IMG/VR virus record: IMGVR_UViG_3300039452_000120
Reading direction: 5' to 3' (one strand)
DNA length: 64,000 nucleotides
From: a virus
Of the stretch, positions 3,899-26,470 are shown one piece after another (position 1 is the stretch's first letter; every line of letters begins with the position of its first letter). Both the position numbers and the translations under genes were made by a program. The notes below the pieces were generated by a model, which was not told the origin of the DNA, did not search any database, and saw only the letters and a list, made by a program, of their open reading frames with translations.

Positions 3899-4268
3899 TA
3901 ACAATCACGCTGAGGACGAGAGCAGTTCACCACGTAATAAACTGAGACGCTTATTTATTGAGTTTGAAGACGTTACTTTCTTAGCGAGGGATTTTATGCG
4001 CTTCAAGCGGTCACAATCCACGACCACTAAATATAGCAGCGGAGTGGATTTTAAGCTGACGCTGCAGATGGCTGTTCCACCTTATGAGGAAGTGTTCAGC
4101 TATCCAACTGAAGAATTACGTAATGAAGCCTATGAGTTGTTGAGAATGCGATTACAAGATTGTGGGGTGATATTCGAGACAGCCAAGCCAATAGAGTTAA
4201 AAACAGTAAAAGAAGACACCTTAAACAACGAATCAGATGAACAACAAGCCTACCCCAGAGCAGATTAA
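3879..4268 (+). CDS. hypothetical protein with acidic termini
   Basis: 129-aa ORF. Confidence 0.5.
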   Translation: MAESESDNNHAEDESSSPRNKLRRLFIEFEDVTFLARDFMRFKRSQSTTTKYSSGVDFKLTLQMAVPPYEEVFSYPTEELRNEAYELLRMRLQDCGVIFETAKPIELKTVKEDTLNNESDEQQAYPRAD

Positions 4269-4854
4269 GGAAGCCATGATCGACATGTGTAAAGACCTTA
4301 TTGAGTTTCACGAAGGTGAACTTACACGTCTTAGAATGACTTTGGCTTTATTAGACGGCACTGCTGAAGAATTAGTAGATGTTAAGAAAGATCAAGATGT
4401 TCCATTTGTGCCGCTTGAACAACCTATTGTAACTCAATTGGAAGGACTTAATGGGAATGTCTATAAAGTTTCACCTACTGACTCTGGTTATGGTGATATT
4501 TTGTCGCAAGCTAAAGAAACTATCAAGAATGGGGAAGGTCACACTGTGAAAGGCTTAGTAGTGGAAAAATTGCCTACTGAGACCATTAAAATGTCTGGTA
4601 CAAACTTGGACTTCTTCAAGGTTGCACAAAAACTTCGCGGCAAGCGTTCACAGCGGGAAATAGCTAACGCCATTGGTTGTTCAGATGTATTGGTTGGTTA
4701 TATTGAAACAGGTCGTGGTGGTGTAAGCATGAATATGGTCAGGAAAATAGCAGAATATTACAAGTTTCATATTACTGAGTTTGTGGTTCCTGAAAAACTG
4801 AAAGGCAGCACGCTGAAAAAGCGTGAAAGTCGGGCTACTAAGGGAGAGGGTTGA
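4237..4854 (+). CDS. XRE-type helix-turn-helix protein
   Basis: C-terminal KRSQREIANAIGCSDVLVGYIETGRGGVSMNMVRKIAEYY matches the Cro/C1-type HTH pattern. Confidence 0.6.
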   Translation: MNNKPTPEQIKEAMIDMCKDLIEFHEGELTRLRMTLALLDGTAEELVDVKKDQDVPFVPLEQPIVTQLEGLNGNVYKVSPTDSGYGDILSQAKETIKNGEGHTVKGLVVEKLPTETIKMSGTNLDFFKVAQKLRGKRSQREIANAIGCSDVLVGYIETGRGGVSMNMVRKIAEYYKFHITEFVVPEKLKGSTLKKRESRATKGEG

Positions 4855-4899: not shown

Positions 4900-5421
4900 T
4901 TGATACAAAATAACCTAAAGAAAGTTCGTACAATTACGAACCGCGCAGCTGCGACGTTTCAATATGACCACGATGAGATATTCTCTCACACTTGTGCTTG
5001 TCTTGTAAAATATTCTGAAAAGTACAAAGACAAATTTTCTGATTTCGGGTCTCAAATACATGGCTTCATATACACAATAGCTAAAAATCATTGTATCAAT
5101 ATATATCGTAAGGAACGATACATGCCAATGATTGATATTGAAACAGTGTACGATGTAGCTGATAATAGTAGGTCTACTGAACAACCAAATCTTGCCCATA
5201 AGGATGCTTTAAAGGACGTGCTTAAGGCTATTAATGAGTTTTTAGAAACCAAGCCACCCAAATACAAAGAAGTGTTTCAGGAACACTTTATTAATGAATT
5301 AGGGTATGAGGAAACCGCAGCAGTTGTTGGTATTCCATGCGGGTCAGTGAAAACTATAATACATTATATTCGTAAGTTTGTACGCAATAAATACGGGAAG
5401 TCTTATTTGTCAGTTGCCTGA
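4900..5421 (+). CDS. ECF-like RNA polymerase sigma factor
   Basis: Region-2-like FIYTIAKNHCINIYRKERY and region-4-like LGYEETAAVVGIPCGSVKTIIHYIRKFV; TTG start, so the exact start is uncertain. Confidence 0.7.
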   Translation: MIQNNLKKVRTITNRAAATFQYDHDEIFSHTCACLVKYSEKYKDKFSDFGSQIHGFIYTIAKNHCINIYRKERYMPMIDIETVYDVADNSRSTEQPNLAHKDALKDVLKAINEFLETKPPKYKEVFQEHFINELGYEETAAVVGIPCGSVKTIIHYIRKFVRNKYGKSYLSVA

Positions 5422-9233: not shown

Positions 9234-9266
9234 AAAAGCTGTCCTTGTGGCAGCTTTTATTGTTTT
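9234..9266 (+). terminator. rho-independent terminator
   Basis: Stem AAAAGCTGTC/GGCAGCTTTT (10 bp, one G-U), loop CTTGT, then ATTGTTTT. Confidence 0.65.
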
Positions 9267-9268
9267 AT

Positions 9269-9279
9269 CAGTTATTCCA
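9269..9279 (+). promoter_or_regulatory. copy of recurrent motif CAGTTATTCCA
   Basis: 20 nt upstream of the terL ATG; the same 11-mer recurs at 32754 and 58903. Confidence 0.35.
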
Positions 9280-9288
9280 CTTGGAACT

Positions 9289-13244: not shown

Positions 13245-13658
13245 ATGAATACGGATTTAGCTTATCAACTCTTGTCAATCTTTGGAACACTGATAGTGTT
13301 TTTCCTTTTCATTGAAGTTGTATTTTCAATGAAGTACAGCTTTTACAACATTATAGTCAACTTTATAAAGTGGCTATTTTGTAAAATAGTATTGAGAAAA
13401 GATTACCCTCAATACTTAGAGCCAATTGAATGGCTCAGTAAACACACAGGTTTTATCGGAGCAGTGATGATCGTAATAGGTCATTTTTATTCGTTGATAG
13501 CCTTAGTGATGCAATTGCGCTTAGGGACTTACCACAATGAGCCAACTGCTTACTTTATATCTTCTCCACTGAATCAGTTTGGCTTAATTTTATTGTGGGT
13601 TAACCCAGTTATCACATTTGTTAAGAATAAATTTATAAAACATTCAAAAAATGGATAA
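13245..13658 (+). CDS. membrane protein
   Basis: 137 aa with about 4 hydrophobic segments. Confidence 0.5.
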   Translation: MNTDLAYQLLSIFGTLIVFFLFIEVVFSMKYSFYNIIVNFIKWLFCKIVLRKDYPQYLEPIEWLSKHTGFIGAVMIVIGHFYSLIALVMQLRLGTYHNEPTAYFISSPLNQFGLILLWVNPVITFVKNKFIKHSKNG

Positions 13659-14046
13659 AGTAAACCTGAGCACGCTTACAGCGTGGCAACGCTTTAAAGC
13701 GGAATGTCCAATATGGGCTAAACGGTTAATTAAATGGTGTATCGGTGTAGCAGGAACTGCTACAGCTTTGGTAACTGCAAAAGCCACTCACATATTTGAG
13801 GACGTGTTTCCTCATTTGTTTTGGACAGTTTGTCACTATTTAATTGCTATGGGAGTAGCTGCTGGTGCAGTGGCTAAAAACACCGTTGATCAAGATAAGT
13901 TACAAGCCAAAGCAGATGCTCAGGCACAAGCGAGCACGCCAGAAGGTTCATTAACTTCTACTATCACACAAGTAGCGGAAGCAGCTGCAGGTGAAACCCC
14001 AGTCGCAACTACACCTGTTCAAAACACACCACCAGCACAAGGTTAA
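13651..14046 (+). CDS. membrane protein with Ala/Thr/Pro/Gln-rich tail
   Basis: 131 aa, about 2 hydrophobic segments, low-complexity C-terminus. Confidence 0.5.
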   Translation: MDKVNLSTLTAWQRFKAECPIWAKRLIKWCIGVAGTATALVTAKATHIFEDVFPHLFWTVCHYLIAMGVAAGAVAKNTVDQDKLQAKADAQAQASTPEGSLTSTITQVAEAAAGETPVATTPVQNTPPAQG

Positions 14047-14056
14047 TAAAAGTAAT

Positions 14057-14374
14057 ATGTTACCATCAATAAAAACAATTTACAGCTTCGTGATAATTGG
14101 ATTATTGCTCGCTGTAGCCATGCCTTCGCACGGTTCGCCCCCCAAACAGAAAGTGGAATACGTTAAACACGTACAGCCATCTAATGATGCTAATATTATA
14201 AAAGAAAACCTGTTTTGCGCTGAAATAAGCGTACCTGAAGTAGCCCCGGTGGTTGAACTACATAAAGTCTACCGAAGTCTGGAAGTGCTGCAATATAGCA
14301 AAAATGCCTACCTGGTCGTCCGGCAGAAAAGTTTTGACCAAAGTAAGGTAGGTTGGCGTACTTACAATATATAA
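14057..14374 (+). CDS. small exported protein
   Basis: Trimmed to ATG 14057; signal-peptide-like MLPSIKTIYSFVIIGLLLAVAMPSHG. Confidence 0.45.
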   Translation: MLPSIKTIYSFVIIGLLLAVAMPSHGSPPKQKVEYVKHVQPSNDANIIKENLFCAEISVPEVAPVVELHKVYRSLEVLQYSKNAYLVVRQKSFDQSKVGWRTYNI

Positions 14375-14398
14375 AGCTAACATTCCGACATTTTGCAG

Positions 14399-14430
14399 TA
14401 GCCCTCACCACAATGAGGGCTATTTTGTTG
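14399..14430 (+). terminator. rho-independent terminator
   Basis: Perfect 9-bp stem TAGCCCTCA/TGAGGGCTA, 6-nt loop, then TTTTGTTGTT. Confidence 0.7.
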
Positions 14431-14454
14431 TTGAGCAACGTTATTGAGATTGTT

Positions 14455-15735
14455 ATGTCAATAGAAGCTCAACAAATCGGACAATTCAATTCAATCAATG
14501 AATTAAGGCTTGAAGTTCAATACAAGCGTAATTACAATAATCAGCGCATTGAGGGTCAAAAGAACGGCTTGCCTTGGGCAGTCAACGTCATCAAGCTTTA
14601 CTTCCGCACTCCAGATGGGGACTTAATATATAAACCTTGGAGTTATAGCAGGTGGAAAGATATTATCGTTGAATATGAGTTCGCTAAACAAGTGTTTAGT
14701 GAATTTGGTTTGATTGGATACGTTGGATTGGCCAAAGATGCTCATCAATATCAAGCAGGAAACATTGAAAAAGCCGGAGAATGGTCTTTGAAGGTGTGGG
14801 AAGTGGGAATGAGTGAGCGTAAGAAATTGTCTCCAAATGAATTGGTCAATGATGTGATCACCCGATTTTACATTAGAATGCTCTTAGAAGGCAAGCTGCC
14901 TTGGCGTGAACCCTTACGCTTTAAAGAACTTCCTTACACGCTTGTCTTTGGTAATGAAGTACGGTTTCAAGGCATCAACCTCTTAACTGTCCTTTGCTCA
15001 GGAATGACTTACGGTATCACCAAAAATCAAGTTGAAGAACTGGGTGGGGAACTGGAGTACAATGCAAAAAAGTGGCCAATGGTGAGGTATAAGTGGTACA
15101 ATTTCGTATTAAAAGATGGTGTAGTTACAAAAGTTACTTACATAGCTAACATGTGGATTGATGAATGGGGAAACAAGTACAAACGTTCTCAAGTGAAGCA
15201 AGGATGGTTCATTAAGCCTTATTATTTATACGATGCTGAAACACAAGTTAACAATATTGAAGCCTTCCTACCAGTTTGCACTGAAATACATAGTATGTCT
15301 TCCCTTGATTTTGTAGACAAGGTGATTGAAGAAATGGGTGCTAAAGCCCCTCGCATTTTGCGTGGGTCAGAAATTAATTATTACAATATGGAATATGATA
15401 CAATCAATATCGGTGATTTAGACCGTTTTGAGAGCAGCAATGAATATTGTTTTATGATGTTTCGCTTGTTAGCTTATTCTGTATTTCGTTTTAATAGGCT
15501 TAATAAAGATACTGAAAAATATGACCTTTTTCTTGTAACGGAGTTCGTAGCCACGTTTTTATGCGCCGAGGGACGAATTAACCCACCTCGTGGGCCAGAG
15601 ATCACCGAAGTGATAAATCAAAGCTTAGAGGCACTTAAAAATGATCGAAACGTCCTAATTCGTTCCGCTCAGGTCGCCTCGAAAATTGTTAGATACATAC
15701 TTAATAAACCTGAATATGATGGACTTAACGATTGA
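14455..15735 (+). CDS. ArdC-N-like (ssDNA-binding, anti-restriction type) domain protein
   Basis: LLEGKLPWREPL...FQGINLLTVL...ITKNQVEELGGEL follows the ArdC N-terminal pattern (GxxPWxxPW...GIN...QAxxLGG). No HExxH seen in the C-terminal half. Start moved to ATG 14455, past the terminator. Confidence 0.5.
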   Translation: MSIEAQQIGQFNSINELRLEVQYKRNYNNQRIEGQKNGLPWAVNVIKLYFRTPDGDLIYKPWSYSRWKDIIVEYEFAKQVFSEFGLIGYVGLAKDAHQYQAGNIEKAGEWSLKVWEVGMSERKKLSPNELVNDVITRFYIRMLLEGKLPWREPLRFKELPYTLVFGNEVRFQGINLLTVLCSGMTYGITKNQVEELGGELEYNAKKWPMVRYKWYNFVLKDGVVTKVTYIANMWIDEWGNKYKRSQVKQGWFIKPYYLYDAETQVNNIEAFLPVCTEIHSMSSLDFVDKVIEEMGAKAPRILRGSEINYYNMEYDTINIGDLDRFESSNEYCFMMFRLLAYSVFRFNRLNKDTEKYDLFLVTEFVATFLCAEGRINPPRGPEITEVINQSLEALKNDRNVLIRSAQVASKIVRYILNKPEYDGLND

Positions 15736-15889
15736 CTTTTTGGTAATAGTTTTCATAGTGTTGATACTATTTCTATTTGTAAAAATAATGGCTAAAGTTA
15801 TCTATTGGCTATTATGCATAAGCATTCTGCGCTTAATTATAAGCATTATTTGTACAATGCTACTCATATACATTCTTAGTAATAAATAA
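15716..15889 (+). CDS. small two-pass membrane protein
   Basis: MMDLTIDFLVIVFIVLILFLFV...LLCISILRLIISIICTMLLIYIL. Confidence 0.4.
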   Translation: MMDLTIDFLVIVFIVLILFLFVKIMAKVIYWLLCISILRLIISIICTMLLIYILSNK

Positions 15890-15978
15890 TAAGATTGCAG
15901 GTAGATGCACACAATTTTAAAATAAATTTTAGAATACCAAACTTTATTACGACCTTTGTCTTAACAAACAAAGGTAAC

Positions 15979-16305
15979 ATGAAAGCATCAAAACGTAAAA
16001 TTGTAAATCATCTGAAGGCTGGTAAGCCATGGATGTACAAAAATCACCCCTGCAGTGAACCAAACACAATACACTTTGTATCAGAAGTTCCTTGGGAAAA
16101 TGGTGAAATTTCTTACACCATAAATACAAAAATATTACACACAAGCGGCAATGTACTTATCAATCCCTTTGATATTGCCCCTATAACTTTCAAGCCTACT
16201 GGGCATATGGAAGTGTTTCTAAACATAGGCGACATTAACGCAAGAGTCACTCTAAACTTCGATAAAATCATCCTTTTAGACAACAAATACAAACCTTTAC
16301 AATAA
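15979..16305 (+). CDS. hypothetical protein
   Basis: Track ORF 15895 starts on TTG; trimmed to ATG 15979 (MKASKRK...). Confidence 0.45.
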   Translation: MKASKRKIVNHLKAGKPWMYKNHPCSEPNTIHFVSEVPWENGEISYTINTKILHTSGNVLINPFDIAPITFKPTGHMEVFLNIGDINARVTLNFDKIILLDNKYKPLQ

Positions 16306-17336
16306 TGGCAAAGATTAAATTTAAAACCATTCATTTACACATGCGTAACCGGGATAAACTCATACTGGTTAACGACATCATCGAAAGCTACCTACAAAGG
16401 GGCTTTCGTATGACCCTACGTCAGCTTTACTATCAGCTTGTATCACGTGACATTATTCCTAACAATGACCTTGAATATGGTAAACTGGGTGACTTGATGG
16501 TTGCCGGGCGAATGATGGGAGTGGTTGACTGGGATGCTATTGTAGACCGTGGGCGTGCTCCCAAATTGCCTTATTTCTCAGATAGTGTGAATGATGCTAT
16601 TAGGGCAGCAGGTGACGAATACCGAGAAGACCGTCAATTTGGTCAAAATACTTATGTTGAAATCTGGGTTGAGAAGGATGCCTTAAGTGAAGTACTTTGG
16701 TACAAATCAGCTCATTATCATATCAATTTAATGGTAAATCGCGGTTACAGCAGTTGTACAGCTATGTTTCAATCATTTAACCGCTTCAAAGATGCTATTG
16801 ACAATGGTAAACAAGTTCACATTTTATATGTAGGTGATCATGACCCTTCAGGATTGGACATGCTACGTGATATCAATGAACGTCTTGCGGAATTTGGTTG
16901 CGATGAAGCACAATTGACTCATATTGCTCTCACTAAACGTCAGATAAACTTATACAATCCACCACCTAACCCTGCTAAAATCAAAGACCCACGTTATGGT
17001 TGGTATGTTGAAAAGCACGGAGATGTGAGTTGGGAAGTAGATGCCCTGACTCCCGAAGCCCTTCATCAAACAGTCGATGTTAATATCAAAAATCTGATTG
17101 ATATGGACAAGTTCAAAGCTGCTGTTTTGAAGGAAGCAGAGAACCGGGCTAAACTGCAATCATTGCCTGCGATGATAACTAATTTGAGAAATTGGAGAGA
17201 CAACACCGTTAACACTCTCAGCGTCATTGATCGTATCAAGAGGGACTTATCAGCTGATGAACTCAACACTTATATTGAGTTGAGCCGCAAGCTGGAAGAA
17301 ATGAAATTGAAAGTTCCTGAATTGATGCAATTTTAG
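16305..17336 (+). CDS. Spo11/Topo VI-A-like protein (winged-helix 5Y-CAP + Toprim)
   Basis: TLRQLYYQLVS (R-x-L-Y-Y catalytic-Tyr-type motif), WVEKDAL (Toprim Glu), YVGDHDPSGLDM (Toprim DxD), in the order found in Topo VI-A. Confidence 0.5.
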   Translation: MAKIKFKTIHLHMRNRDKLILVNDIIESYLQRGFRMTLRQLYYQLVSRDIIPNNDLEYGKLGDLMVAGRMMGVVDWDAIVDRGRAPKLPYFSDSVNDAIRAAGDEYREDRQFGQNTYVEIWVEKDALSEVLWYKSAHYHINLMVNRGYSSCTAMFQSFNRFKDAIDNGKQVHILYVGDHDPSGLDMLRDINERLAEFGCDEAQLTHIALTKRQINLYNPPPNPAKIKDPRYGWYVEKHGDVSWEVDALTPEALHQTVDVNIKNLIDMDKFKAAVLKEAENRAKLQSLPAMITNLRNWRDNTVNTLSVIDRIKRDLSADELNTYIELSRKLEEMKLKVPELMQF

Positions 17337-17350
17337 TTATTGTTACAAGA

Positions 17351-18007
17351 ATGAAAGAAAAACTTACAATTTGGTTTTTAGGCTCTAATTCAGTGGGGAA
17401 GACGACACAATGTGCGCTTCTCCACTTGTTATTGAGAGATGTTTACAACCAAAGCAATTATCGCTCTCGTGTTATTCAGGCTCATGAGAATGGTGTCACT
17501 TCTTACTATACTAAAGTAAGCCCGGTATCAGCCAACCTTGGTATATTTCATCATCCGCTTACCGCTGTCACTGACCCTTCCGTAAAACCTAATGCTTGTT
17601 GCGGTACGGATAAACTTTCAACCAAGGCACAAATCGAATTAGCCTACCGCGCAGCTTTAGCTGACCCGGAAGTGACGATCATCACGGTAGATGCAATTAT
17701 GGCTACCGGGCAGTTTCTCAACTTCCTCGTCAACGAAAACAGCTTACTTTTCACTATATTGTTGGACTGTACTGAAGAAATTAACTTTAAAAGGTTGGCT
17801 GAACGAAGGGCTGCTAAACGAGGAGTTGAGCCTTCCCAGATTATCATTGATGATCGTACTAAAGAAAATCTGAGTAGCAAGCTTCGTGGTTTTCGCTCTA
17901 TGTACGAAAAAGCGAAGCCTAAAAGTGACTTTTTCAAGGTGTTTTCAACCGATTTGATGTTGATAAACGAAATTTCGTCTTGTATAATTGACTTATTAAC
18001 GCTTTAG
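17351..18007 (+). CDS. P-loop kinase-like protein (candidate 5-hmdU DNA kinase)
   Basis: Walker A FLGSNSVGKTT. The specific role is inferred only from neighbouring genes. Confidence 0.45.
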   Translation: MKEKLTIWFLGSNSVGKTTQCALLHLLLRDVYNQSNYRSRVIQAHENGVTSYYTKVSPVSANLGIFHHPLTAVTDPSVKPNACCGTDKLSTKAQIELAYRAALADPEVTIITVDAIMATGQFLNFLVNENSLLFTILLDCTEEINFKRLAERRAAKRGVEPSQIIIDDRTKENLSSKLRGFRSMYEKAKPKSDFFKVFSTDLMLINEISSCIIDLLTL

Positions 18008-18028
18008 GTTTCAAAACTCAACGTTTTT

Positions 18029-18066
18029 CTCTTTTGCCCCCAGGGGAAAAAGAGTTCTTCTTTCTG
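18029..18066 (+). terminator. terminator-like hairpin
   Basis: CTCTTTT-G-CCC...GGG-A-AAAAGAG interrupted stem, followed by the T-rich TTCTTCTTTCT. Confidence 0.45.
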
Positions 18067-18126
18067 TATTCTGCTCTGTTAAGGATCATTATAAATGTGT
18101 TGCTAATCTCAAAATCAAAATAAGAA

Positions 18127-19125
18127 ATGAAAAAACAAACTAAACCTGAGAATAGTCTGATGAACGCAGACGTTATTGTAGTTGGTGCTGGAATGGTGGG
18201 CAGCATGATTACTAAACACTTGAGAGCTAATGGCTTACAAGTGTTATTAATTGATTGTGAAAGACCGTTTTCAGGTTCAAAATGCTCTTCAGGAATGTGG
18301 AGAGATGGATGGGTCAATGATAAAATCCGGGAACAATATGAACAGGGGCTGGAAGTGCTTCATGAATACGCAGGAATCAATACAATTGAAGTGGAAAACT
18401 TGGACACGAAGCTGTCCGTCAAGAAGAACGGTTCAGAGCAAACAGATGTACAAATTGATGAATTGATGTATGTGAATTGGAAGGACATTTGTGATGTACA
18501 AGCAGTTAATTATGAAGTTGTTAGTGTTTGTAAGAATATTGTGACGTGTCGCCACCATGGCAATGATCACAATAACCGACCACGCACGACTCAGTTTGTA
18601 GCAATGAAAAAGGTATTTTTGTGTACTGGTGCTTATACAGATGAGTTGCTTCGGGATAGCGGGTATTCTCCCATTGGATTGGATCGGTATTTTGGGTCAG
18701 CCATTGAAACCCGCAATTTAGATTACAAAATCATTAGCAAAATCAAAACTTGGGCACCGTATAAGCAATTCTTAGCTGCTCGCGTGGGAAAAACCAAGTT
18801 AAAGTTTTCTGATGGCTCGATGGTCAAAAACCCACCTTTAGAGCAGGGTGACGAGCGTTGTGACCGGGTGCATCAGCGGTTGAAGGAACATGTAGTCGAA
18901 GTGATGGGAACGAAATTCAAGTATGATAAGGACGATACCAAGGAACTTTTTGGATTGCGTCCCTACTTGCCCAAAGGTGACCACGAATTTGTGCATAATC
19001 ATGACTCTGACTTGTGGTCATTTACTGGAACAGCTAAAAACACTACCATCCTTTGTGGGTATTTAGCTATCAGGGCATTAGAGATTGCTACCTCTCCAAA
19101 AGCACGCTTGGTTAAGGAAAGTTAA
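18127..19125 (+). CDS. FAD-dependent oxidoreductase
   Basis: N-terminal Rossmann dinucleotide-binding motif DVIVVGAGMVGSMITKHLRANGLQVLLIDCE. Confidence 0.7.
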   Translation: MKKQTKPENSLMNADVIVVGAGMVGSMITKHLRANGLQVLLIDCERPFSGSKCSSGMWRDGWVNDKIREQYEQGLEVLHEYAGINTIEVENLDTKLSVKKNGSEQTDVQIDELMYVNWKDICDVQAVNYEVVSVCKNIVTCRHHGNDHNNRPRTTQFVAMKKVFLCTGAYTDELLRDSGYSPIGLDRYFGSAIETRNLDYKIISKIKTWAPYKQFLAARVGKTKLKFSDGSMVKNPPLEQGDERCDRVHQRLKEHVVEVMGTKFKYDKDDTKELFGLRPYLPKGDHEFVHNHDSDLWSFTGTAKNTTILCGYLAIRALEIATSPKARLVKES

Positions 19126-19136
19126 CCCAGCTCATC

Positions 19137-19292
19137 ATGAACAAGCGATTAATTAGCGTACTTGCAGTAATTGTGATATTTATACTGCTCATATACATAA
19201 TATGTTACAATATTTTTGCTGTGCCGCGTCTTAACAAGGTAAGGCAACCAGTCATAGATACCACAATTGAAACACAGGACTATACTGAGTGA
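19137..19292 (+). CDS. small single-pass membrane protein (not in ORF track)
   Basis: ATG 19137 to TGA 19290-19292; MNKRLISVLAVIVIFILLIYIICYNIFAV... Confidence 0.35.
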   Translation: MNKRLISVLAVIVIFILLIYIICYNIFAVPRLNKVRQPVIDTTIETQDYTE

Positions 19293-19480
19293 CACGGAAA
19301 GAAAAACAGTTGCTGTATTTTCAGTACACTGAGTATCGCAATAGAATGAAAGCCCAACCCTTACCAATTTACAGATTTTGGAAAGTGGAGCGTTACCGAC
19401 AGTGGTACAAAATGTTAAACGAAGTTGGTACAAACATCACCCTGTCAGATGAATTGTACTCTGAACAATTTCGTATTTAA
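19289..19480 (+). CDS. hypothetical protein
   Basis: 63-aa GTG-initiated ORF overlapping the previous stop (GTGA). Confidence 0.35.
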   Translation: MTRKEKQLLYFQYTEYRNRMKAQPLPIYRFWKVERYRQWYKMLNEVGTNITLSDELYSEQFRI

Positions 19481-19485
19481 ACGTA

Positions 19486-19555
19486 TCAGAGTTATTAGTA
19501 CACAGAATGATGCAAGTCGGTGGAAACGCTGCTGAAGCATCTCAGAGTTATAGTA
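19486..19555 (+). promoter_or_regulatory. direct repeat TCAGAGTTAT(T)AGTA, two copies
   Basis: Copies at 19486-19500 and 19542-19555 in the intergenic region upstream of ATG 19592. Confidence 0.3.
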
Positions 19556-19591
19556 ACAAAACAACATTGTAAACAATTAAAATTTCAACAA

Positions 19592-19846
19592 ATGCCAACT
19601 GTAAAAAAAGCAGGGTCAGCAGCACCCGCAGCAAAATCGGAAAAAGCAAAAGAAGGTGTGTACGCTTATTGCATGAGCACCAAGCAAAAAGAACTGGTAG
19701 ATGACGCCGTTATCACAAAAACTGACAAAGGTCAGTACATTGCTAAAGGTACTGCCACAAAAGACAAACACAAAGTGAGCGTAATTATGAGCGAAGCTGC
19801 CGCCAAGGAAGCTGTAGCTAATAAATGGGCTAAAAAAGACTACTAA
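19592..19846 (+). CDS. small Lys/Ala-rich protein
   Basis: Trimmed to ATG 19592 (MPTVKKAGSAAPAAKSEKAKEG...); a strong terminator follows. Confidence 0.5.
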   Translation: MPTVKKAGSAAPAAKSEKAKEGVYAYCMSTKQKELVDDAVITKTDKGQYIAKGTATKDKHKVSVIMSEAAAKEAVANKWAKKDY

Positions 19847-19882
19847 GTCGCCCCAGCACGCAATACCGTTTTTGTACTCCAG

Positions 19883-19921
19883 AAGGCTCAGGGTTAATTC
19901 CTTTGAGCCTTTGTTATTTTT
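19883..19921 (+). terminator. rho-independent terminator
   Basis: Perfect 8-bp stem AAGGCTCA/TGAGCCTT, 13-nt loop, then TGTTATTTTT. Confidence 0.6.
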
Positions 19922-19938
19922 ATACAAGACAAGTTAAT

Positions 19939-20586
19939 ATGGACAATACATTACGCAGTGTTTTACAATTTCATGAAGTTTTTGGGCAGTATATTTCGGC
20001 TGATATAACGCCAACTATACCAATGCCTGTAAAAACTTTACGGTTTAATTTGATGACGGAAGAATATTTAGAGTTGTTAAAAGCGGAAGCAGAAAATGAC
20101 CGGGTAGAAATTGCGGATGCGTTGTGTGACTTGAAGTATGTGCTTAACGGTACGATTATTGCTCACGGACTTCACAATCATTGGACAATTTTGTATAATG
20201 CTTTCGATCATTTGTTGAAGCATTTTCCCAATGTAAATTTTCGATTGGATGACTACTTATACTCAGGGGATGAGGGGTTTATCTACGTATTGTTGAAGCT
20301 GGATTATTTCATTCGTTCCAAAGTGGAGTTTCACGGATTAACAGTTGTATTCGGGGACATGTTCAACGAGGTGCACCGTTCCAATATGAGTAAGACTTGC
20401 CGTAATGAGGAAGTGGCCATTGCCACTTGTTTAGCCAGGATGCGTGAATTCGATACTGAATGTCACTATGCTTCAAAAGATGGTTATTTCTTGGTGTACC
20501 GTACCAGTGATCAAAAGACGCTTAAGAGCGTGGAATACTCTCCAGCCAATTTAGCACAATTCTTACCAGAATATAACATTAACTAA
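19939..20586 (+). CDS. MazG-like all-alpha NTP pyrophosphohydrolase
   Basis: LMTEEYLELLKA (EExxE) and EIADALCDLKYVL (DxxxD) metal-binding motifs, plus FNEVHRSNMSK and a C-terminal DGY...SPANL. Start moved to ATG 19939, past the terminator. Confidence 0.65.
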   Translation: MDNTLRSVLQFHEVFGQYISADITPTIPMPVKTLRFNLMTEEYLELLKAEAENDRVEIADALCDLKYVLNGTIIAHGLHNHWTILYNAFDHLLKHFPNVNFRLDDYLYSGDEGFIYVLLKLDYFIRSKVEFHGLTVVFGDMFNEVHRSNMSKTCRNEEVAIATCLARMREFDTECHYASKDGYFLVYRTSDQKTLKSVEYSPANLAQFLPEYNIN

Positions 20587-20613
20587 CAGTCATATCAAAG
20601 TTACCCACAGTAT

Positions 20614-21027
20614 ATGTGGATATTTTCTAAAAGAGGCTTTTATTCCATAGTGGAAGACAAGCTATTACCTAATAAGTGGCAAGTGAGAGCACGAACACGT
20701 GTAGACCTCGAAAACCTGATAAATGCTAATAATTTACAAGTAAAATTGATAGAAACACCCCACGCTGATTACCGTTTTCGTATAGTGGTTGACGCTACCC
20801 AGTTTGTATCAATAATGAGTGGCTTCGCAAAAGACGTCACATATACTAACTTCAAAGATGCTGTTAAGCATGTGAAGGGGCAGCAAGACAAGCTTGACAT
20901 ATTGCATCAGATTTGGGTGCTAATGTGGAAGCTACAAGCTAAACTTCATCCTTACAAGTTTAAGGGCAAGCGTAAAGCTAACAAATATGTAGGTGATAGC
21001 GGGAAGGAACATTATTCTGTATTTTAA
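20614..21027 (+). CDS. hypothetical protein
   Basis: 137-aa ORF; TAATG junction with the next gene. Confidence 0.55.
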   Translation: MWIFSKRGFYSIVEDKLLPNKWQVRARTRVDLENLINANNLQVKLIETPHADYRFRIVVDATQFVSIMSGFAKDVTYTNFKDAVKHVKGQQDKLDILHQIWVLMWKLQAKLHPYKFKGKRKANKYVGDSGKEHYSVF

Positions 21028-21953
21028 TGAAAGATATACGCAAGATACATCAAGACTTTGAACTTTTTAGTCGTGCTTTGATAGCTTCTAAGGACGTTGA
21101 TCCAGTGTATCCACTGGTACCTAAGTTGATAAAGTTGGGAAGGTATAATAAGCATTGGTTTGTATTTTGTTATGTAGCGTTTTATTCTTTGGAGAGTGCC
21201 ATAGTTATGTGTGATGAGATGCCTTCAATGAAGGATTGGTGGGCAGAAACTTTTCGGGAAATGCGCAACAGTGGTAAACTTCATAAGTTTGGTCATGAAC
21301 GAAGGGGAACAGCACGAAATGTATTAGTGCAAGAAATTATGTTCAAAGACATCATCCAGTTTATTGACACTTGGATGATAGAAGTCCTTTCCAAGGATAA
21401 TCAACACTTTCGCAACAGGTTGCAAACTAATTTGTCTAATCACGGTGGTTGGGCTTCATTTAAGATAGCCGAATTGTTTGAAAAGTCACTTGGCTATACT
21501 CAATTAGCCATTCCTGATTTAGGCTTAGAGGGACGCGACCCTAATTCTACAGATGGGCCAGTTGCAGGGTTGCGTTGGTTGTATGGCTTCGATAATCATT
21601 ATGACAAGGATTATTTTGAAGTTTGGAATAAGTTTGGAGCCAATTTAGCACGTGAGTGGGGTGTAGATATTGGAGAAGTAGAAACTTGTCTTTGTAAATT
21701 TCATAAATTGCGCACCGGGAAATATTATGTGGGACATGATATAGATGAGTTTTACGATTTAAGTCACGTTTTAGACCGTAAGACGTATGAGCAGACGATG
21801 AGTGATATCTTCGATGAGCGCACGTGGAAAGGTCGCACTGGCGTGAGAAAAAGTGATAAATCAGCATATTTAAAGACTGGGCGTATTCTGGGAAGTGAAT
21901 TTTCAGTTAATTTACCCAAAATTAATGTAACTGACATATTACTCTCCACGTAA
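21027..21953 (+). CDS. possible aGPT-Pplase / amino-acid:DNA transferase-like protein (second paralog-type)
   Basis: 308 aa, coupled (TAATG) to the next gene. DVDPVYPLV...WFVFCYVAFYSLESA recalls aGPT-Pplase clade signatures from memory only. Confidence 0.35.
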   Translation: MKDIRKIHQDFELFSRALIASKDVDPVYPLVPKLIKLGRYNKHWFVFCYVAFYSLESAIVMCDEMPSMKDWWAETFREMRNSGKLHKFGHERRGTARNVLVQEIMFKDIIQFIDTWMIEVLSKDNQHFRNRLQTNLSNHGGWASFKIAELFEKSLGYTQLAIPDLGLEGRDPNSTDGPVAGLRWLYGFDNHYDKDYFEVWNKFGANLAREWGVDIGEVETCLCKFHKLRTGKYYVGHDIDEFYDLSHVLDRKTYEQTMSDIFDERTWKGRTGVRKSDKSAYLKTGRILGSEFSVNLPKINVTDILLST

Positions 21954-22954
21954 TGTTATACGAATTTGTACATCCAAATAAGCGACTTGAAGATGTTTCC
22001 TTCTATAGTGCGTTGCCTGACGCCAATATTCATCTTCACGACCAACACTTGCAATCTTTTTTCAATTTTATGGCTGAACGTCAAAACGTTTGGTATAAGC
22101 GTAATATATTAAAGCAAAAAGCCCCTTGGACAAGTGATAAGCTGTTGGCGAATTACGCTTTTACCAATGTGTACCGCGAGTTAGACCGCTCATCTCAGTG
22201 GCTTATTCGTAATGTCATTAGTGATAAAAGCTTGGAGTTAAAAGACCTCATATTTCGTATATTTATATATAGGTATTTCAATAAGCCGGATGCATTTGAG
22301 GATGGTTATGTAGATTTACCAACTTGGGATAATTTTGATCCTGTAAAGCTTCATAAGCAGGTCATTAATTGCAGGAAGCATTACAATCCTTGGCACACAG
22401 CTTATATGAGCAATCTCGTGTGGGCAAAGAAACAACCATTTGAAGGCGAAATGTTCAAAGATCATGCTTACTGTATTCAGTTGTTTCCGCAATTTCGTAC
22501 AGTAAGTTGGTTTATATCAGAATTATTGACGAGCGGTAATAAGCCTGTAATCATAATGAAAAATCTCAACATGTTACCAAGCATATCGGGTTTTATGAGT
22601 CATGAATTGTGGCTTGATTATTGTTTATTACAGAAATATAACAAATATGACTTTGGTTGGGATGAAAATTCTTACACAAATGTTGGCCCCGGTGCAAGTC
22701 TTGGTATTAGATTGATATTTCCTTCCCTCTCACCGCAGGGACAGGAAGAAGGGATTTATGCACTCCGTGATGTATCAGAACACATGCTTTCAGACATGGA
22801 TTTTAAGTACGTGAAGTGGGACGGTAAAGAATATGTAGATTGTGAACACAATATTACACTGCATCAGATTGAGTTTGTACTTTGCGAATACTCGAAATAT
22901 TGGAAAATGCAAATAGGCATCGGTAAGCAGCGTAGTAAATTTGTTCCTCATTAA
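21953..22954 (+). CDS. aGPT-Pplase / amino-acid:DNA transferase-like DNA base hypermodification protein
   Basis: ERQNVWYKRNILKQKAPWTSDKLLANYAFTNVYRELDRSSQW matches the W-x-R...PWT-D...F-T-N-V-Y-R-E-L-D-R signature I associate with this family. Confidence 0.5.
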   Translation: MLYEFVHPNKRLEDVSFYSALPDANIHLHDQHLQSFFNFMAERQNVWYKRNILKQKAPWTSDKLLANYAFTNVYRELDRSSQWLIRNVISDKSLELKDLIFRIFIYRYFNKPDAFEDGYVDLPTWDNFDPVKLHKQVINCRKHYNPWHTAYMSNLVWAKKQPFEGEMFKDHAYCIQLFPQFRTVSWFISELLTSGNKPVIIMKNLNMLPSISGFMSHELWLDYCLLQKYNKYDFGWDENSYTNVGPGASLGIRLIFPSLSPQGQEEGIYALRDVSEHMLSDMDFKYVKWDGKEYVDCEHNITLHQIEFVLCEYSKYWKMQIGIGKQRSKFVPH

Positions 22955-24769: not shown

Positions 24770-26470
24770 ATGTCTACAGAAATTATAAATAATTCTATAG
24801 GTAAGTCGTTGGATGACATTGATGTTGGCATAAAGCGACTTGAAGTAGAGCGAATGCTCACTATAGAAAAAGGCATGGCTTCTAATAACCCGGATGACAT
24901 AATGAAGTCCTATCAGGTGTTAGACCTTATTACCCGTAAGCATGAATCAAATCGAAAGTCTATTATTATAGACCCCAATGATTTTGGTTCATCTTTTGGC
25001 TATAAAGACAAGCCAATGTCTCTTAGCTATGATATGTTATACAATATGTCAAAAGTACCAATGGTTAATGCGGTAATTAAGACCCGTGTTAATCAGGTAG
25101 CCCGGTTCGCTGAACCTCAGCGTGATAAATACTCAATGGGGTTTGTTGTTCGTCGCAGACTTCGTCAAGGGGATTTAGACCGTCCTATGTCTAAAAAGGA
25201 TCAAAAAGAAGCCAACCGTATTGTAGATTTTATATTGAATTGCGGAAATGGTTTTTCCTTTGAAGGTGATCAGGATTTTGACACCTTTATTCGGAAGGTG
25301 ACGCTTGATAGCTTGCGTTATGATCAGATGTGCTTTGAGACTGTTTTTGATAAGAAAGGTGCACCGTATGCGTTTTATTCCACTGATGCTCAGACTATGC
25401 GTATAGCCGATACGTGGGATGATGATACGGTCATGACTAATAATCAGATTTGGGCTTACGGTCAAAAGAACAAGGTGTTGCCAATCAATTTGCGTAAAGC
25501 TATAAAGGGTTATTATCCGAATTACGTGCAAGTGATTGATGGGCAACCAATAAATGCTTTTTACCCATGGGAAATGTGCTTTGGTACACGCAACGCAAGC
25601 ACTTCAATCTATTCCAATGGGTACGGGTGCAGTGAGTTGGAAGAACTTGTATTAACAGTCACTTCTCTTATATGGGGTGAAGAATATAATCGTAGGTTCT
25701 TTAAACAAGGTTCTGTACCTAAAGGGCTTTTGCGTGTGTCAGGACAAATTAATGATACTAAGCTGGCTCAGTTTAAGCAGGAATGGAATGCTACAATGCG
25801 TGGGGTTTATAATGCTTGGAAAACACCAATACTCGAAGGGGAAAAAGTGGAGTGGGTAGACTTACAAAAGTCTAATAGCGACATGGAATATCATGCTTGG
25901 ATTGAGTTTCTTATTAAAGTAATATGTGCTGTATTTTGTATTGACCCCGCTGAAGTAAACTTTCCATTAGACGGGTCAGCTTCGTCGGGTGGTATAAAGT
26001 TTGGTGGTGATAATAAAGAACGCTTACAACAATCAAAAGACAAAGGGCTTTACCCTTTATTAAAGTTCATACAAATGAAGCTAAATCGTAGCATTGTTTG
26101 GCCAATGAACCCTGAATTTGAATTTGCTTTTGTTGGATTGAATACCATTGATGCTCAGACAGAGTTAGACATGGATATAAAGAAAGTTCAAAATTATGTA
26201 ACTGTAAATGAACTTCGTCGTGAAAAAGGAATGCCAGACATTGATGGGGGTGACATCATTCTCAATCCAGTTTACGCTTCACAATTGTTAGCTAAACAAC
26301 AGTTGGATCAAGCTAACGCAGCTAATGGCAAGCCTGATATGTTCGATATGACTGATTTACAGGGACAAGAAAACAATGAACGACCATCGGAACAAGATAA
26401 CATGATGGAAGAACCAATACAAAAAGCCTTTAACGAATACATAAACTCATTAAATAAGAAAGCAGCATGA
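24770..26470 (+). CDS. portal protein
   Basis: 566 aa; core EEYNRRFFKQGSVPKGLL...FKQEWNATMRGVYNAWKTPILEG...DMEYHAWIEFLIKVICAVFCIDPAEV is typical of portal proteins; acidic C-terminus. Confidence 0.8.
   Translation: MSTEIINNSIGKSLDDIDVGIKRLEVERMLTIEKGMASNNPDDIMKSYQVLDLITRKHESNRKSIIIDPNDFGSSFGYKDKPMSLSYDMLYNMSKVPMVNAVIKTRVNQVARFAEPQRDKYSMGFVVRRRLRQGDLDRPMSKKDQKEANRIVDFILNCGNGFSFEGDQDFDTFIRKVTLDSLRYDQMCFETVFDKKGAPYAFYSTDAQTMRIADTWDDDTVMTNNQIWAYGQKNKVLPINLRKAIKGYYPNYVQVIDGQPINAFYPWEMCFGTRNASTSIYSNGYGCSELEELVLTVTSLIWGEEYNRRFFKQGSVPKGLLRVSGQINDTKLAQFKQEWNATMRGVYNAWKTPILEGEKVEWVDLQKSNSDMEYHAWIEFLIKVICAVFCIDPAEVNFPLDGSASSGGIKFGGDNKERLQQSKDKGLYPLLKFIQMKLNRSIVWPMNPEFEFAFVGLNTIDAQTELDMDIKKVQNYVTVNELRREKGMPDIDGGDIILNPVYASQLLAKQQLDQANAANGKPDMFDMTDLQGQENNERPSEQDNMMEEPIQKAFNEYINSLNKKAA

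Follow-up and report, generated by a model that had tools for sequence, protein, structure and literature searches.

The locus analysed here has its described counterpart in the thymidine hypermodification system of phage PaMx11. Its proteins gp49, gp46, gp47 and gp50 are a kinase, an amino-acid:DNA transferase of the ADDT family, an FAD lyase and a clade-1 protein, and its pathway adds an acetyltransferase (gp48) step. The biochemistry of the reference enzymes has been described (PMC8989533, PMC11472151). The substrate attached by known ADDT enzymes is glycine, serine or putrescine. In the tests of Lee et al. 2021, the kinases put a single phosphate on 5-hmdU, giving 5-PmdU and not a pyrophosphate; the pyrophosphorylation that the original prediction ascribed to such phages is not supported.

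The window, a stretch of 64,000 nucleotides, comes from an uncultivated phage with a circular assembly of ~109.7 kb; 81% of this genome, all but ~20.3 kb, was read and searched. Five ORFs on the + strand between 17351 and 22954, which had been proposed to form a 5-hmdU-derived thymidine hypermodification cassette, were all found with the coordinates and motifs given for them. These are not chance ORFs: the products of all but one exceed the curated Pfam cut-offs (DAO 56 bits, PRA-PH 42, ADDT 30.8 and HMUDK_hel 163). The proposal is supported by the ADDT and HMUDK_hel matches, a gp47 homologue and synteny; the cassette is real and coherent, and is a variant of a known system. We read it as probably a PaMx11-type post-replicative cassette with 5-aminomethyl-dU (5-NmdU) as the predicted final base.

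Enzymes shared with PaMx11

BLASTP paired the proteins of the window one-to-one with PaMx11 gp46 (1.6e-5), gp47 (2.8e-26), gp50 (1.9e-13) and gp49 (0.03), and the acetyltransferase gp48 had no partner. The enzyme set, previously regarded as unmatched, is that of PaMx11 without gp48.

The ORF at 18127-19125 (+ strand, 332 aa; VVGAGMVGS...LLIDCE) encodes a putative FAD-dependent N-alpha-glycinylthymine oxidase/lyase (NGTO). Its product matches Pfam DAO (5.6e-15) and the PDB entries 8z2o/8z79 of gp47, 'flavin-dependent lyase' (E 6e-21; residues 12-315 on 2-280), and gp47 is a full-length homologue, in agreement with the tailoring lyase originally predicted. GxGxxG and gp47 residues W51, Y180, Q182, K202, R210, R242, Y244 and K268 are kept, and the replacement of gp47 F52 by Val is the sole change among the substrate-contact residues checked (residue roles from PMC11472151). 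R242 of gp47 has been proposed to hold the glycyl carboxylate. The product is predicted to turn N-alpha-GlyT into 5-NmdU and glyoxylate.

The two coupled ORFs 21027-21953 and 21953-22954 (both + strand) share one base, and both belong to the aGPT-Pplase superfamily as expected. The second (333 aa) carries the signature VWYKRN...APWTSD...FTNVYRELDR, from which it had been taken for the amino-acid transferase. This assignment is ruled out by its match to Pfam PF18723 (HMUDK_hel, former aGPT-Pplase clade 1; 1.6e-47) and by the ADDT match of the upstream ORF, which encodes the transferase.

The 308-aa product of 21027-21953 is assigned to the amino-acid:DNA transferases (AADT; former aGPT-Pplase clade 2) by Pfam ADDT (3.1e-7), with a score barely over the cut-off of 26.2 bits. 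The BLASTP match to gp46 spans 271 aa at 23% identity, and PDB 25qc and 8z2m are weak matches. The gp46 residues D24, Y47, Y51, E92, W146, K150, E243, T244, C247, D262 and E265 are all kept, among them the catalytic C247, the metal ligands E243 and T244, and the glycine contacts D24, W146 and K150. Both W146 and K150 are kept in five of five related cassettes having NGTO, and in cassette types without it W146 is altered in four of four and K150 in three of four, a reading that depends on a single crystal structure and a correlation across few cassettes, with the ViI serine and phiW-14 putrescine transferases outside the comparison. This transferase is predicted to be glycine-specific and to form N-alpha-glycinylthymidine from 5-PmdU and glycine.

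Counterparts of the 21953 product are PaMx11 gp50, M6 gp55 and ViI gp160, and homologues occur in 313 phage records, mostly of ViI-like, Vibrio, M6-like and SP10-like Bacillus phages. The motif I-E-x-x-x-C-E-x-x-K-Y is invariant in 11 HMUDK_hel homologues and aligns with the catalytic E243...C247 of AADT. The role of this protein in the cassette is putative; clade-1 proteins were dispensable for amino-acid transfer in vitro (PMC8989533).

A divergent P-loop kinase

The ORF at 17351-18007 (+ strand) encodes a divergent P-loop kinase of 218 aa carrying FLGSNSVGKTTQ. Its product had no match to Pfam PF18748 (5-hmdU DNA kinase), phage genomes or PDB sequences, and BLAST-level similarity to characterised 5-hmdU DNA kinases is absent. 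When its 16-member family was compared with an M6-type kinase by hhalign, the probability was 95.5% (E 1.6e-8), and the motifs G-x-N-x-x-GKTT, G-x-D and L-K/F-R-L-x-x-R are common to both. A custom HMM of 12 M6/PaMx11-type kinases gave 28 bits for the window protein and matched all 16 family members. The family profile matched just 159 of 1.84 billion representatives; its weak tail is enriched in PF18748 members, which made up 13 of the 58 tail matches scanned, a scan that omitted long repetitive and short fragment matches. The AF2 model of the protein has a pLDDT of 91, and its top BFVD Foldseek matches include an SP10 protein named 5-hmdU DNA kinase and the kinases of Bordetella phage CN1 and Klebsiella phage KpS110, which we take to be M6-like and ViI-like, respectively. 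Of the 11 related locus records, 10 (nine distinct cassettes) have the family together with ADDT and HMUDK_hel, and the eleventh record ends at a contig edge inside the locus.

Profile-profile comparison, Foldseek, the library-wide profile search and the synteny with ADDT and HMUDK_hel place the 17351 product in a small sister clade of the PF18748 family. Although the PF18748 model missed it, it most probably corresponds to the DNA kinase of the original prediction, and would convert 5-hmdU to 5-phosphomethyl-dU (5-PmdU).

Predicted 5-hmdU source and pathway, and alternatives

A ThyA homologue (PF00303) is located at 13481-14698 of L030, a part of the same circular genome, ~8.4 kb beyond the 3' end of the window. 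Its best matches among 2,185 phage records are the dUMP hydroxymethylases of the hmU phages SPO1 (gp29), SP8 and SP-10 (~41% identity, E 1e-43 to 4e-46; BLASTP against SPO1 gp29, 2e-52). Bona fide thymidylate synthase has a cut-off of 327 bits, of which this homologue reaches 84. The genome thus holds a homologue of the dUMP hydroxymethylase that the original prediction called for, and with it encodes a source of 5-hmdU. A YfbR-like HD 5'-deoxynucleotidase lies near it, after two DNA polymerase III alpha genes.

Inside the cassette, the ORF at 19939-20586 (+ strand, 215 aa; EEYLELLKAE / DALCD / HRSNMSK) encodes a MazG/PRA-PH-type all-alpha NTP pyrophosphohydrolase (Pfam PRA-PH 1.7e-10; phrog_671 'nucleotide pyrophosphohydrolase' 4e-26). 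The ATG at 19939, also used by the ENA contig gene call, is the better start because the longer ORF, which opens with TTG at 19903, begins within a terminator-like hairpin (19882-19912, + strand; a 12-bp stem then a T run, a consensus match only). The MazG-type gene is also kept within the L006 cassette. The nearest isolates carrying relatives are jumbo phages, which are not known to be T-modifiers, and the protein did not detectably resemble the dTTPase/dUTPase characterised from phage SH-Ab 15599. The enzyme may act as a dTTPase/dUTPase that prevents the incorporation of T and U during replication.

In the pathway suggested by the enzyme homologies, conserved catalytic and contact residues, synteny and hydroxymethylase homologue computed here, the SPO1-gp29-like enzyme would make 5-hmdUMP, and the HD 5'-deoxynucleotidase and the MazG-type pyrophosphohydrolase would lower dTMP, dTTP and dUTP, so that replication would place 5-hmdU instead of T. 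The P-loop kinase would then convert 5-hmdU in DNA to 5-PmdU. In the transferase, Cys attack at C6 would displace the phosphate, and glycine would be joined via its alpha-amine to give N-alpha-glycinylthymidine. The FAD enzyme would oxidise the N-C-alpha bond, after which hydrolysis would free glyoxylate and leave 5-aminomethyl-2'-deoxyuridine (5-NmdU). Since the enzymes match the PaMx11 pathway minus its last step, the likely product is 5-NmdU, a known intermediate, and not the new adduct once suggested. It is the predicted final base because the 81% of the genome that was read yielded no further tailoring enzyme. Among the 67 window ORFs no radical-SAM or PLP domain was found, as noted originally, nor any acetyltransferase, methyltransferase, ThyA or TET/JBP domain (E <= 1e-4), and the window, L011 and L030 hold no GNAT, FkbM, GATase, rSAM or TAGT homologues. 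As the final base, 5-NmdU would stand in for T with a positive charge and would block restriction enzymes.

It is unlikely, on our estimate, that the pathway runs alike to 5-NmdU and the virion base is then acetylated, methylated or otherwise tailored, by an enzyme in the remaining 20.3 kb or among the unannotated ORFs. PaMx11 includes an acetyltransferase, the cassettes L015 and L018 join the same FAD enzyme to an FkbM-type methyltransferase, and L019 has a GNAT; the unread 19% could encode an acetyl- or methyltransferase, and two ORFs without assigned function (19592-19846 and 20614-21027) lie inside the cassette. However, in the related uncultivated phages the kinase and HMUDK_hel flanks are constant and the tailoring genes, which are exchanged, all lie between them, an interval that holds none in the window. 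L006 and L021 share its minimal enzyme set, and 20614-21027 is missing from all related cassettes. We consider it very improbable that the transferase adds a non-glycine nucleophile and the flavoenzyme oxidises another N-substituent, giving an adduct undescribed so far. Sequence is an unreliable guide to ADDT specificity, identity to gp46 is low, and amine oxidases with the fold of the FAD enzyme take varied substrates, but the three glycine contacts of gp46 and R242 of gp47 are kept and co-vary with the flavoenzyme across related cassettes.

There is also a small chance that the 17351 product is a nucleotide kinase (e.g. a 5-hmdUMP or dNMP kinase for the dNTP pool) and that the DNA kinase is absent or encoded elsewhere. 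The hmU phages require a dNMP kinase for 5-hmdUMP (PMC8989533). The closest PDB structural neighbours of the model are NMP kinases, the PF18748 threshold was missed, and nine of the 16 family members have weak Thymidylate_kin matches, but these are confined to the lid segment. Among viral models, the best matches include the SP10 5-hmdU DNA kinase and the kinases of the apparently M6-like and ViI-like phages, which clearly surpass dTMP kinases in TM (0.63-0.65 for the top viral kinase matches versus 0.3-0.55 for generic NMP kinases) and in rmsd. Thymidylate kinases are ubiquitous, yet the 25 families listed for the profile tail matches do not include Thymidylate_kin, and the nearest named family across the 1.84 billion representatives is PF18748. 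The 17351 family is fixed beside ADDT and HMUDK_hel, in some related cassettes with two to three paralogous copies as in ViI, and without this protein the cassette would have no kinase within the 81% of the genome.

Other genes in and around the cassette

The ORF at 19592-19846 (+ strand), followed 3' by the hairpin and also called on the ENA contig, encodes a small lysine-rich protein of 84 aa that matched nothing in Pfam, PHROG, the phage genomes or PDB. BLAST homologues lie, at varying positions, within the majority of related cassettes (L006, L008/L016, L018, L019/L020, L021 and L022/L023). The product is possibly DNA-associated, and its membership of the pathway is uncertain. The ORF at 20614-21027 (+ strand) encodes a hypothetical protein of 137 aa with no Pfam or PHROG family. 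Its sporadic homologues occur in six isolated phages of ~90-130 kb, none of which is known to us to hypermodify thymine, and it probably entered the cassette as an unrelated insertion, outside the pathway.

Upstream of the kinase, the ORF at 16305-17336 (+ strand) encodes a Toprim / Topo-VI-A-like protein (phrog_6247 'DNA topoisomerase' 1.5e-78; weak TP6A_N). A homologue lies immediately 5' of the kinase in L005, L006, L015 and L021, with a weak match there in L023. Homologues are widespread in siphoviruses, with top matches in Flavobacterium psychrophilum phages (47% identity), and we know of no thymine hypermodification in these siphoviruses. The gene probably serves replication or recombination and not the pathway.

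The portal gene is at 24770-26470 (Pfam Phage_portal). The position of the cassette between terminase and portal had been thought unusual, but location 5' of the portal is conserved in this phage lineage and is no peculiarity of this genome. Further upstream, a 930-aa ORF at 9247-12039, a putative terminase, contains an intein (Hint and LAGLIDADG).

Gene content of the cassette and its counterparts in PaMx11

An ORF check of the window recovered the five cassette ORFs of the original prediction (17351-22954) on the + strand, which carries every large ORF of the window, and all the motifs ascribed to them were present. For the MazG-like gene (19939-20586, +; Pfam PRA-PH/MazG) the ATG at 19939 was favoured as start, because the alternative, a longer ORF starting with TTG, shares sequence with a terminator-like hairpin (19882-19912). 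The ORFs 20614-21027, 21027-21953 and 21953-22954 overlap by one base, each with the next, and the portal gene lies downstream of the cassette (24770-26470). The location between terminase and portal had been considered an oddity, but it is simply conserved across the lineage, and a functional meaning for it was dropped. The cassette showed no DNA-level similarity to any of 50,697 phage records.

The two ORFs at the 3' end had both been read as transferases, the second one with more assurance. That role belongs to the upstream ORF alone, 21027-21953 (+), which matched Pfam PF18724 (ADDT, now amino-acid:DNA transferase or AADT, formerly clade 2) with 30.8 bits against a cut-off of 26.2. ORF 21953-22954 (+) matched PF18723 instead (HMUDK_hel, formerly aGPT-Pplase clade 1; E 1.6e-47, residues 32-320). 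Amino-acid transfer in vitro proceeds without the clade-1 proteins M6 gp55 and ViI gp160 (PMC8989533). The motif I-E-x-x-x-C-E-x-x-K-Y is invariant in the window HMUDK_hel protein and 10 homologues. Because this motif aligns with the catalytic E243...C247 of the AADT gp46 of PaMx11, we speculate that HMUDK_hel may be an active enzyme on the pyrimidine C6/C5-methylene or the activated base, not a passive helical domain. The best isolate match to the window clade-1 protein was from phage YungSlug, which we take to be SP10-like.

The enzyme set had also been thought to match no worked-out pathway. It pairs one-to-one with proteins of the PaMx11 5-AcNmdU pathway (gp46-gp52; Lee et al. 2021, Wen et al. 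2024), whose genes are ordered gp46 AADT, gp47 lyase, gp48 acetyltransferase, gp49 kinase, gp50 clade-1 protein, gp51 ThyA-like protein and gp52 HD protein. By BLASTP, gp47 paired with 18127-19125 (E 2.8e-26), gp50 with 21953-22954 (E 1.9e-13), gp46 with 21027-21953 (E 1.6e-5) and gp49, weakly, with 17351-18007 (E 0.03); gp48 had no partner in the window.

The flavoenzyme (18127-19125, +; Pfam DAO) found by sequence the PDB entries 8z2o/8z79, the 'flavin-dependent lyase' gp47 of PaMx11, over its whole length (E 6e-21). Its homologues among the 50,697 phage records were confined to 20 siphovirus records, mostly PaMx11-like Pseudomonas phages. Residue roles of gp46 and gp47 were taken from their crystal structures (PMC11472151). 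The gp47 residues W51, Y180, Q182, K202, R210, R242, Y244 and K268 are kept in the window protein and F52 is replaced by Val; R242 has been proposed to hold the glycyl carboxylate (PMC11472151). ORF 18127-19125 has both the FAD-binding and the substrate-contact features of a gp47-type oxidase/lyase, and its product appears not to be a generic oxidoreductase.

In the window ADDT the nucleophile C247, the metal ligands E243 and T244 and the phosphate-pocket residues are all conserved relative to gp46, and so are the three glycine contacts D24, W146 and K150. We compared the last two within the set of related cassettes, which is separate from the serine (ViI) and putrescine (phiW-14) transferases. 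Both W146 and K150 are retained in exactly the five cassettes that have the flavoenzyme; among the flavoenzyme-free types, W146 is changed in four of four (M or Y) and K150 in three of four (F or L). Because the conserved contact residues co-occur with the flavoenzyme, this pattern supports a glycine-specific transferase that would supply a glycinyl-thymine oxidase.

A kinase beyond the reach of PF18748

The product of 17351-18007 had been proposed to be akin to 5-hmdU DNA kinases, and here the standard profile failed. It had no match to the Pfam 5-hmdU DNA kinase family PF18748 at E <= 0.1 (gathering threshold 27 bits), and only one of the 16 members of its family matched that profile (E 0.005); an M6-type control kinase scored 64.9 bits. 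Because the threshold was missed, we do not file the kinase as a PF18748 member. Searches with tblastn against the phage records at E <= 1 and with phmmer against PDB found nothing, and the protein is placeable only through profile and structure methods. Its family is small: a set of 5.8 billion proteins contains 16 clusters of it, and a set of 1.84 billion representatives contains 159.

By these methods the kinship held. With hhalign, the family aligned to the M6-type kinase of phage Jack (probability 95.5%, E 1.6e-8). The alignment takes in Walker A (G-x-N-x-x-GKTT), a G-x-D motif, the strand that leads into the substrate lid and the lid itself (K/F-R-L-x-x-R). The best viral Foldseek matches of an AF2 model (pLDDT 91) included the SP10 '5-hmdU DNA kinase' and the kinases of Bordetella phage CN1 and Klebsiella phage KpS110, presumably M6-like and ViI-like, respectively. 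These gave TM 0.63-0.65 and an rmsd of about 4 A, and thymidylate and other NMP kinases were clearly worse. We also scanned 58 of the weakest matches of the family profile, leaving out long repetitive and short fragment matches. Thirteen were PF18748 members, and in others a kinase domain was joined to a GNAT or amidoligase domain. Despite the ubiquity of thymidylate kinases, Thymidylate_kin was absent from the 25 families listed for these matches. A custom HMM built from 12 M6/PaMx11-type kinases matched all 16 family members, the window protein with 28 bits. In 10 of 11 related locus records fetched (9 distinct cassettes), ADDT and HMUDK_hel genes accompany the kinase gene; the eleventh, L005, ends at the contig end just past the flavoenzyme gene. 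Some related loci hold one or two additional kinase paralogues, as in ViI. On account of the hhalign, structural, weak-tail, custom-HMM and synteny evidence, we treat the kinase as belonging to a sister clade of PF18748, and it probably acts as a 5-hmdU DNA kinase.

This clade would escape survey searches that use tblastn with M6, ViI or phiW-14 kinases or Pfam PF18748, and such surveys therefore undercount T-hypermodifying phages. We found no description of it in the literature searched.

The probable source of 5-hmdU and the predicted end product

The original prediction called for a hydroxymethylase elsewhere in the genome. ENA contig ERZ27313792:k141_2108777 (109,798 bp) is, by coordinate arithmetic, the same phage as the window. 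Its ends overlap by 141 bases, which is the assembler's k, and the window reads straight through the junction; for these reasons the genome is circular or circularly permuted. Its length is about 109,657 bp, of which the window spans 58%. The phage is known only from metagenomes. It was also found fragmented inside the NCBI MAG GCA_019237105.1, and searches for it by exact pattern in IMG/VR and in JGI metagenomes, and by protein in JGI metagenomes, gave no match.

Queries of the M6 type and from PaMx11, as well as Pfam, detected no ThyA homologue in the window, and no TET/JBP was found there; this says little, because the window holds no replication genes. ThyA was likewise absent from L011, the 10 kb upstream of the window. 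On the related contig 3300048588_000114 neither ThyA nor TET/JBP occurred within 6.8-70.5 kb, an absence of little weight because the polymerase module of that contig falls outside this stretch. A homologue search with a partial protein gave no match. The gene was reached through the phage's own primase, by reading its neighbourhood (the next 10 kb). L030, a stretch that runs on past the 3' end of the window, encodes a 405-aa ThyA homologue (PF00303) at 13481-14698, about 8.4 kb past that end, followed by DNA polymerase III alpha in two ORFs (14700-16466 and 16463-18526); a YfbR-like HD 5'-deoxynucleotidase is encoded in the same stretch. Among 2,185 phage ThyA-like records, the best matches of the ThyA homologue were Goe26, SP-10, SPO1 gp29, SP82G and SP8, and it is about 41% identical to the dUMP hydroxymethylases of Bacillus hmU phages (E 1e-43 to 4e-46). 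BLASTP gave 2e-52 to SPO1 gp29 and 1e-42 to PaMx11 gp51, and the three share the motifs K-D-x-P-C-N and N-R-S-N-D-L. Against the NCBIfam thymidylate synthase equivalogs it scored 84 bits, with a cut-off of 327. The same circular contig thus carries, at the level of homology, the ThyA-related enzyme that the original prediction called for, and the genome appears to encode a source of 5-hmdU, a predicted dUMP hydroxymethylase.

Before replication, the hydroxymethylase would make 5-hmdUMP, and the HD nucleotidase and the MazG enzyme would clear dTMP, dTTP and dUTP. A selective dTTPase/dUTPase of the MazG-like general fold class was recently characterised from phage SH-Ab 15599 (PMC13458397); the window MazG protein has no direct similarity to it. 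[quoted passage not shown]

The predicted chemistry is the same as in PaMx11 up to 5-NmdU. The phage has homologues of gp46, gp47, gp50, gp51 and, remotely, gp49, with the catalytic and substrate-contact residues of gp46 and gp47 conserved, and an HD-type nucleotidase near the hydroxymethylase. Unlike PaMx11, its cassette has no acetyltransferase and includes a MazG-type pyrophosphohydrolase, and its kinase falls in a separate clade missing PF18748. The hydroxymethylase, adjacent in PaMx11, lies about 50 kb from the window cassette and is nearer to SPO1 gp29 than to gp51. PaMx11 is a Pseudomonas siphovirus, whereas the window phage is an SPO1-like myovirus, probably of Bacteroidota.

Acetylation to 5-AcNmdU is the next step in PaMx11, for which an acetyltransferase was sought. 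There is no GNAT among the 67 window ORFs, and tblastn with gp48 and with the GNAT of the related locus L019 found no match in the window, L011 and L030 (81% of the genome). Homologues of GNAT, FkbM, GATase, radical-SAM and TAGT proteins were all absent from 89.3 of 109.7 kb (the window, the 10 kb upstream and on through the polymerase). ORF 20614-21027 was considered as a hidden acetyltransferase and rejected: it matches no family, none of the related cassettes contains it, and its only homologues are scattered over six isolated, unrelated phages. We regard it as an insertion. Because no gp48/GNAT homologue occurs in the window, L011 and L030, the cassette does not appear, on this 81% of the genome, to be a 5-AcNmdU system.

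The 5-NedU set of M6 (gp51 AADT, gp52 PLP decarboxylase, gp53 radical-SAM isomerase, gp54 kinase, gp55 clade-1 protein) has in common with the window the kinase, a glycine-type AADT, the clade-1 protein and the intermediate N-alpha-GlyT. The window cassette differs in having a flavin lyase in place of the PLP and radical-SAM enzymes, so C-N cleavage would be expected rather than the isomerisation and decarboxylation of M6. Among the Bacillus hmU phages (SPO1, SP8) and SP10, to which the portal and the ThyA-like hydroxymethylase of the window phage are most similar, SPO1 and SP8 stop at 5-hmdU. The SP10 kinase ranks with the best structural neighbours of the window kinase model, but in SP10 it is fused to the clade-1 domain and the product is alpha-glutamylthymidine; none of these phages has DNA-level similarity to the window cassette. 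Like the FAD domain of MnmC (tRNA cmnm5U to nm5U), beside which Lee et al. 2021 set gp47, the flavoenzyme would remove a glycine-derived carboxymethyl group oxidatively from a 5-aminomethyl-uracil, and it gave a faint match to NCBIfam MnmC. It differs in that its substrate would be DNA, not tRNA, and the window has no fused or neighbouring methyltransferase (the related loci L015 and L018 add FkbM).

The literature already covers the chemistry, the enzyme families involved and their modular arrangement, and the window reveals no new kind of chemistry. In the literature searched we found no natural-phage pathway that stops at 5-NmdU and no description of the lineage-specific slot between the kinase and HMUDK_hel genes. 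To our knowledge, 5-NmdU has so far been seen only in vitro, as an intermediate of the PaMx11 pathway. With this cassette, PaMx11/M6-type thymine hypermodification would reach beyond Pseudomonas siphoviruses into a lineage of SPO1-like myoviruses known from metagenomes alone. The predicted final base carries a free primary amine, and such a phage would be a natural source of amine-functionalised DNA, useful for studying restriction and CRISPR evasion.

Related loci and neighbouring genes

In the relatives with an annotated portal (L006, L008/L016), the cassette lies upstream of the portal gene with at most one gene intervening, and the remaining relatives have the same gene order as far as read. 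The best isolate matches of the window portal were Chryseobacterium phage MA9V-3 (38.5%) and SPO1-like Herelleviridae, and those of the Toprim-like neighbour were Flavobacterium phages; the phage is an SPO1-like myovirus, probably with a host in the Bacteroidota, candidates being Flavobacteriia.

The kinase and HMUDK_hel genes bound the cassette in the related loci, and the gene content between them varies. The window and L006 have the flavoenzyme and ADDT only, with the MazG gene; L021 has the flavoenzyme, ADDT and two extra kinase paralogues. The flavoenzyme and ADDT are joined by an FkbM methyltransferase in L015 and L018, and L017 has the ADDT and FkbM methyltransferase. L022/L023 (9980-15136) carry a GATase, a variant ADDT, an FkbM methyltransferase and a GIY-YIG gene, L019/L020 a GATase, a variant ADDT and a GNAT, and L008/L016 (10001-15957) a variant ADDT, a radical-SAM/SPASM protein and a TAGT glycosyltransferase-like protein. 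The glycine-contact residues are changed in the variant ADDTs of these last three types, which are candidates for thymine adducts not yet described. Combinatorial tailoring was described for metaviromes by Lee et al. 2021; here the pattern is found at a single conserved slot of one lineage. Fixed flanking genes and changing tailoring modules make these loci a compact set for comparison and good candidates for discovering new adducts.

L015 8093-12587 and L018 11028-15508 (IMG/VR contigs 3300012956_000021 and 3300042356_001663) encode an N-alpha-GlyT oxidase and a glycine-type ADDT, with the FkbM-family methyltransferase just before HMUDK_hel. By analogy with MnmC (cmnm5U to nm5U to mnm5U), these cassettes are predicted to place 5-methylaminomethyl-dU in DNA, of which we found no report.

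Taken jointly, a terminal 5-NmdU, an unrecognised clade of 5-hmdU DNA kinases and a module-swapping slot that yields several undescribed adducts make up a reading that we hold tentatively, at slightly under an even chance. If it is true, the slot upstream of the portal swaps FkbM methyltransferase, GATase, GNAT and radical-SAM plus TAGT modules.

Several neighbouring genes were also observed. An 84-aa lysine-rich protein is encoded at 19592-19846, with the strong terminator-like hairpin after its gene. It had no Pfam, PHROG, isolated-phage or PDB match; homologues sit inside most related cassettes, at differing positions. TF1 of SPO1 prefers hmU DNA, and by analogy the 84-aa protein could be a DNA-binding protein linked to modified DNA.

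The next gene upstream of the kinase gene in the window, L005, L006, L015 and L021 encodes a Toprim/Topo-VI-A-like protein (16305-17336; phrog_6247, weak TP6A_N, motifs E-K-D and DHDPSG); L023 has no more than a weak match there. It was rejected as a pathway member, because it is common in siphoviruses with no known thymine hypermodification. In Rhizobium phage RHph_TM26 about 1.4 kb separates the Toprim-like gene from a gp47-like flavoenzyme gene, across the ends of the linear record.

An ArdC-like anti-restriction protein (14353-15735; MPTase-PolyVal zincin domain, phrog_7245) is encoded 1.6 kb upstream of the cassette, and L005 has an ArdcN domain in the same place. It would be a second counter-defence function beside the DNA-modification genes. 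Upstream of its own cassette, at about 6.8-50 kb (L025-L028), the related contig 3300048588_000114 encodes a protein with a Tad2-like domain (Thoeris anti-defence), a patatin-like phospholipase, an RNase H and a RecA/Mre11/Rad50-like/UvrD block; a second MazG gene lies within 6.8-70.5 kb.

Inteins occur in a 930-aa putative large terminase (9247-12039; Hint and LAGLIDADG homing endonuclease) and in an 883-aa protein with PT-HINT/Intein_splicing domains (62129-64000, continuing as L030 3160-5811). One window ORF matched the Pfam ART family (NAD:arginine ADP-ribosyltransferase; E 1.9e-5), and the early region of the window encodes an HTH protein (4237-4854) and a sigma-70-like factor (4900-5421).
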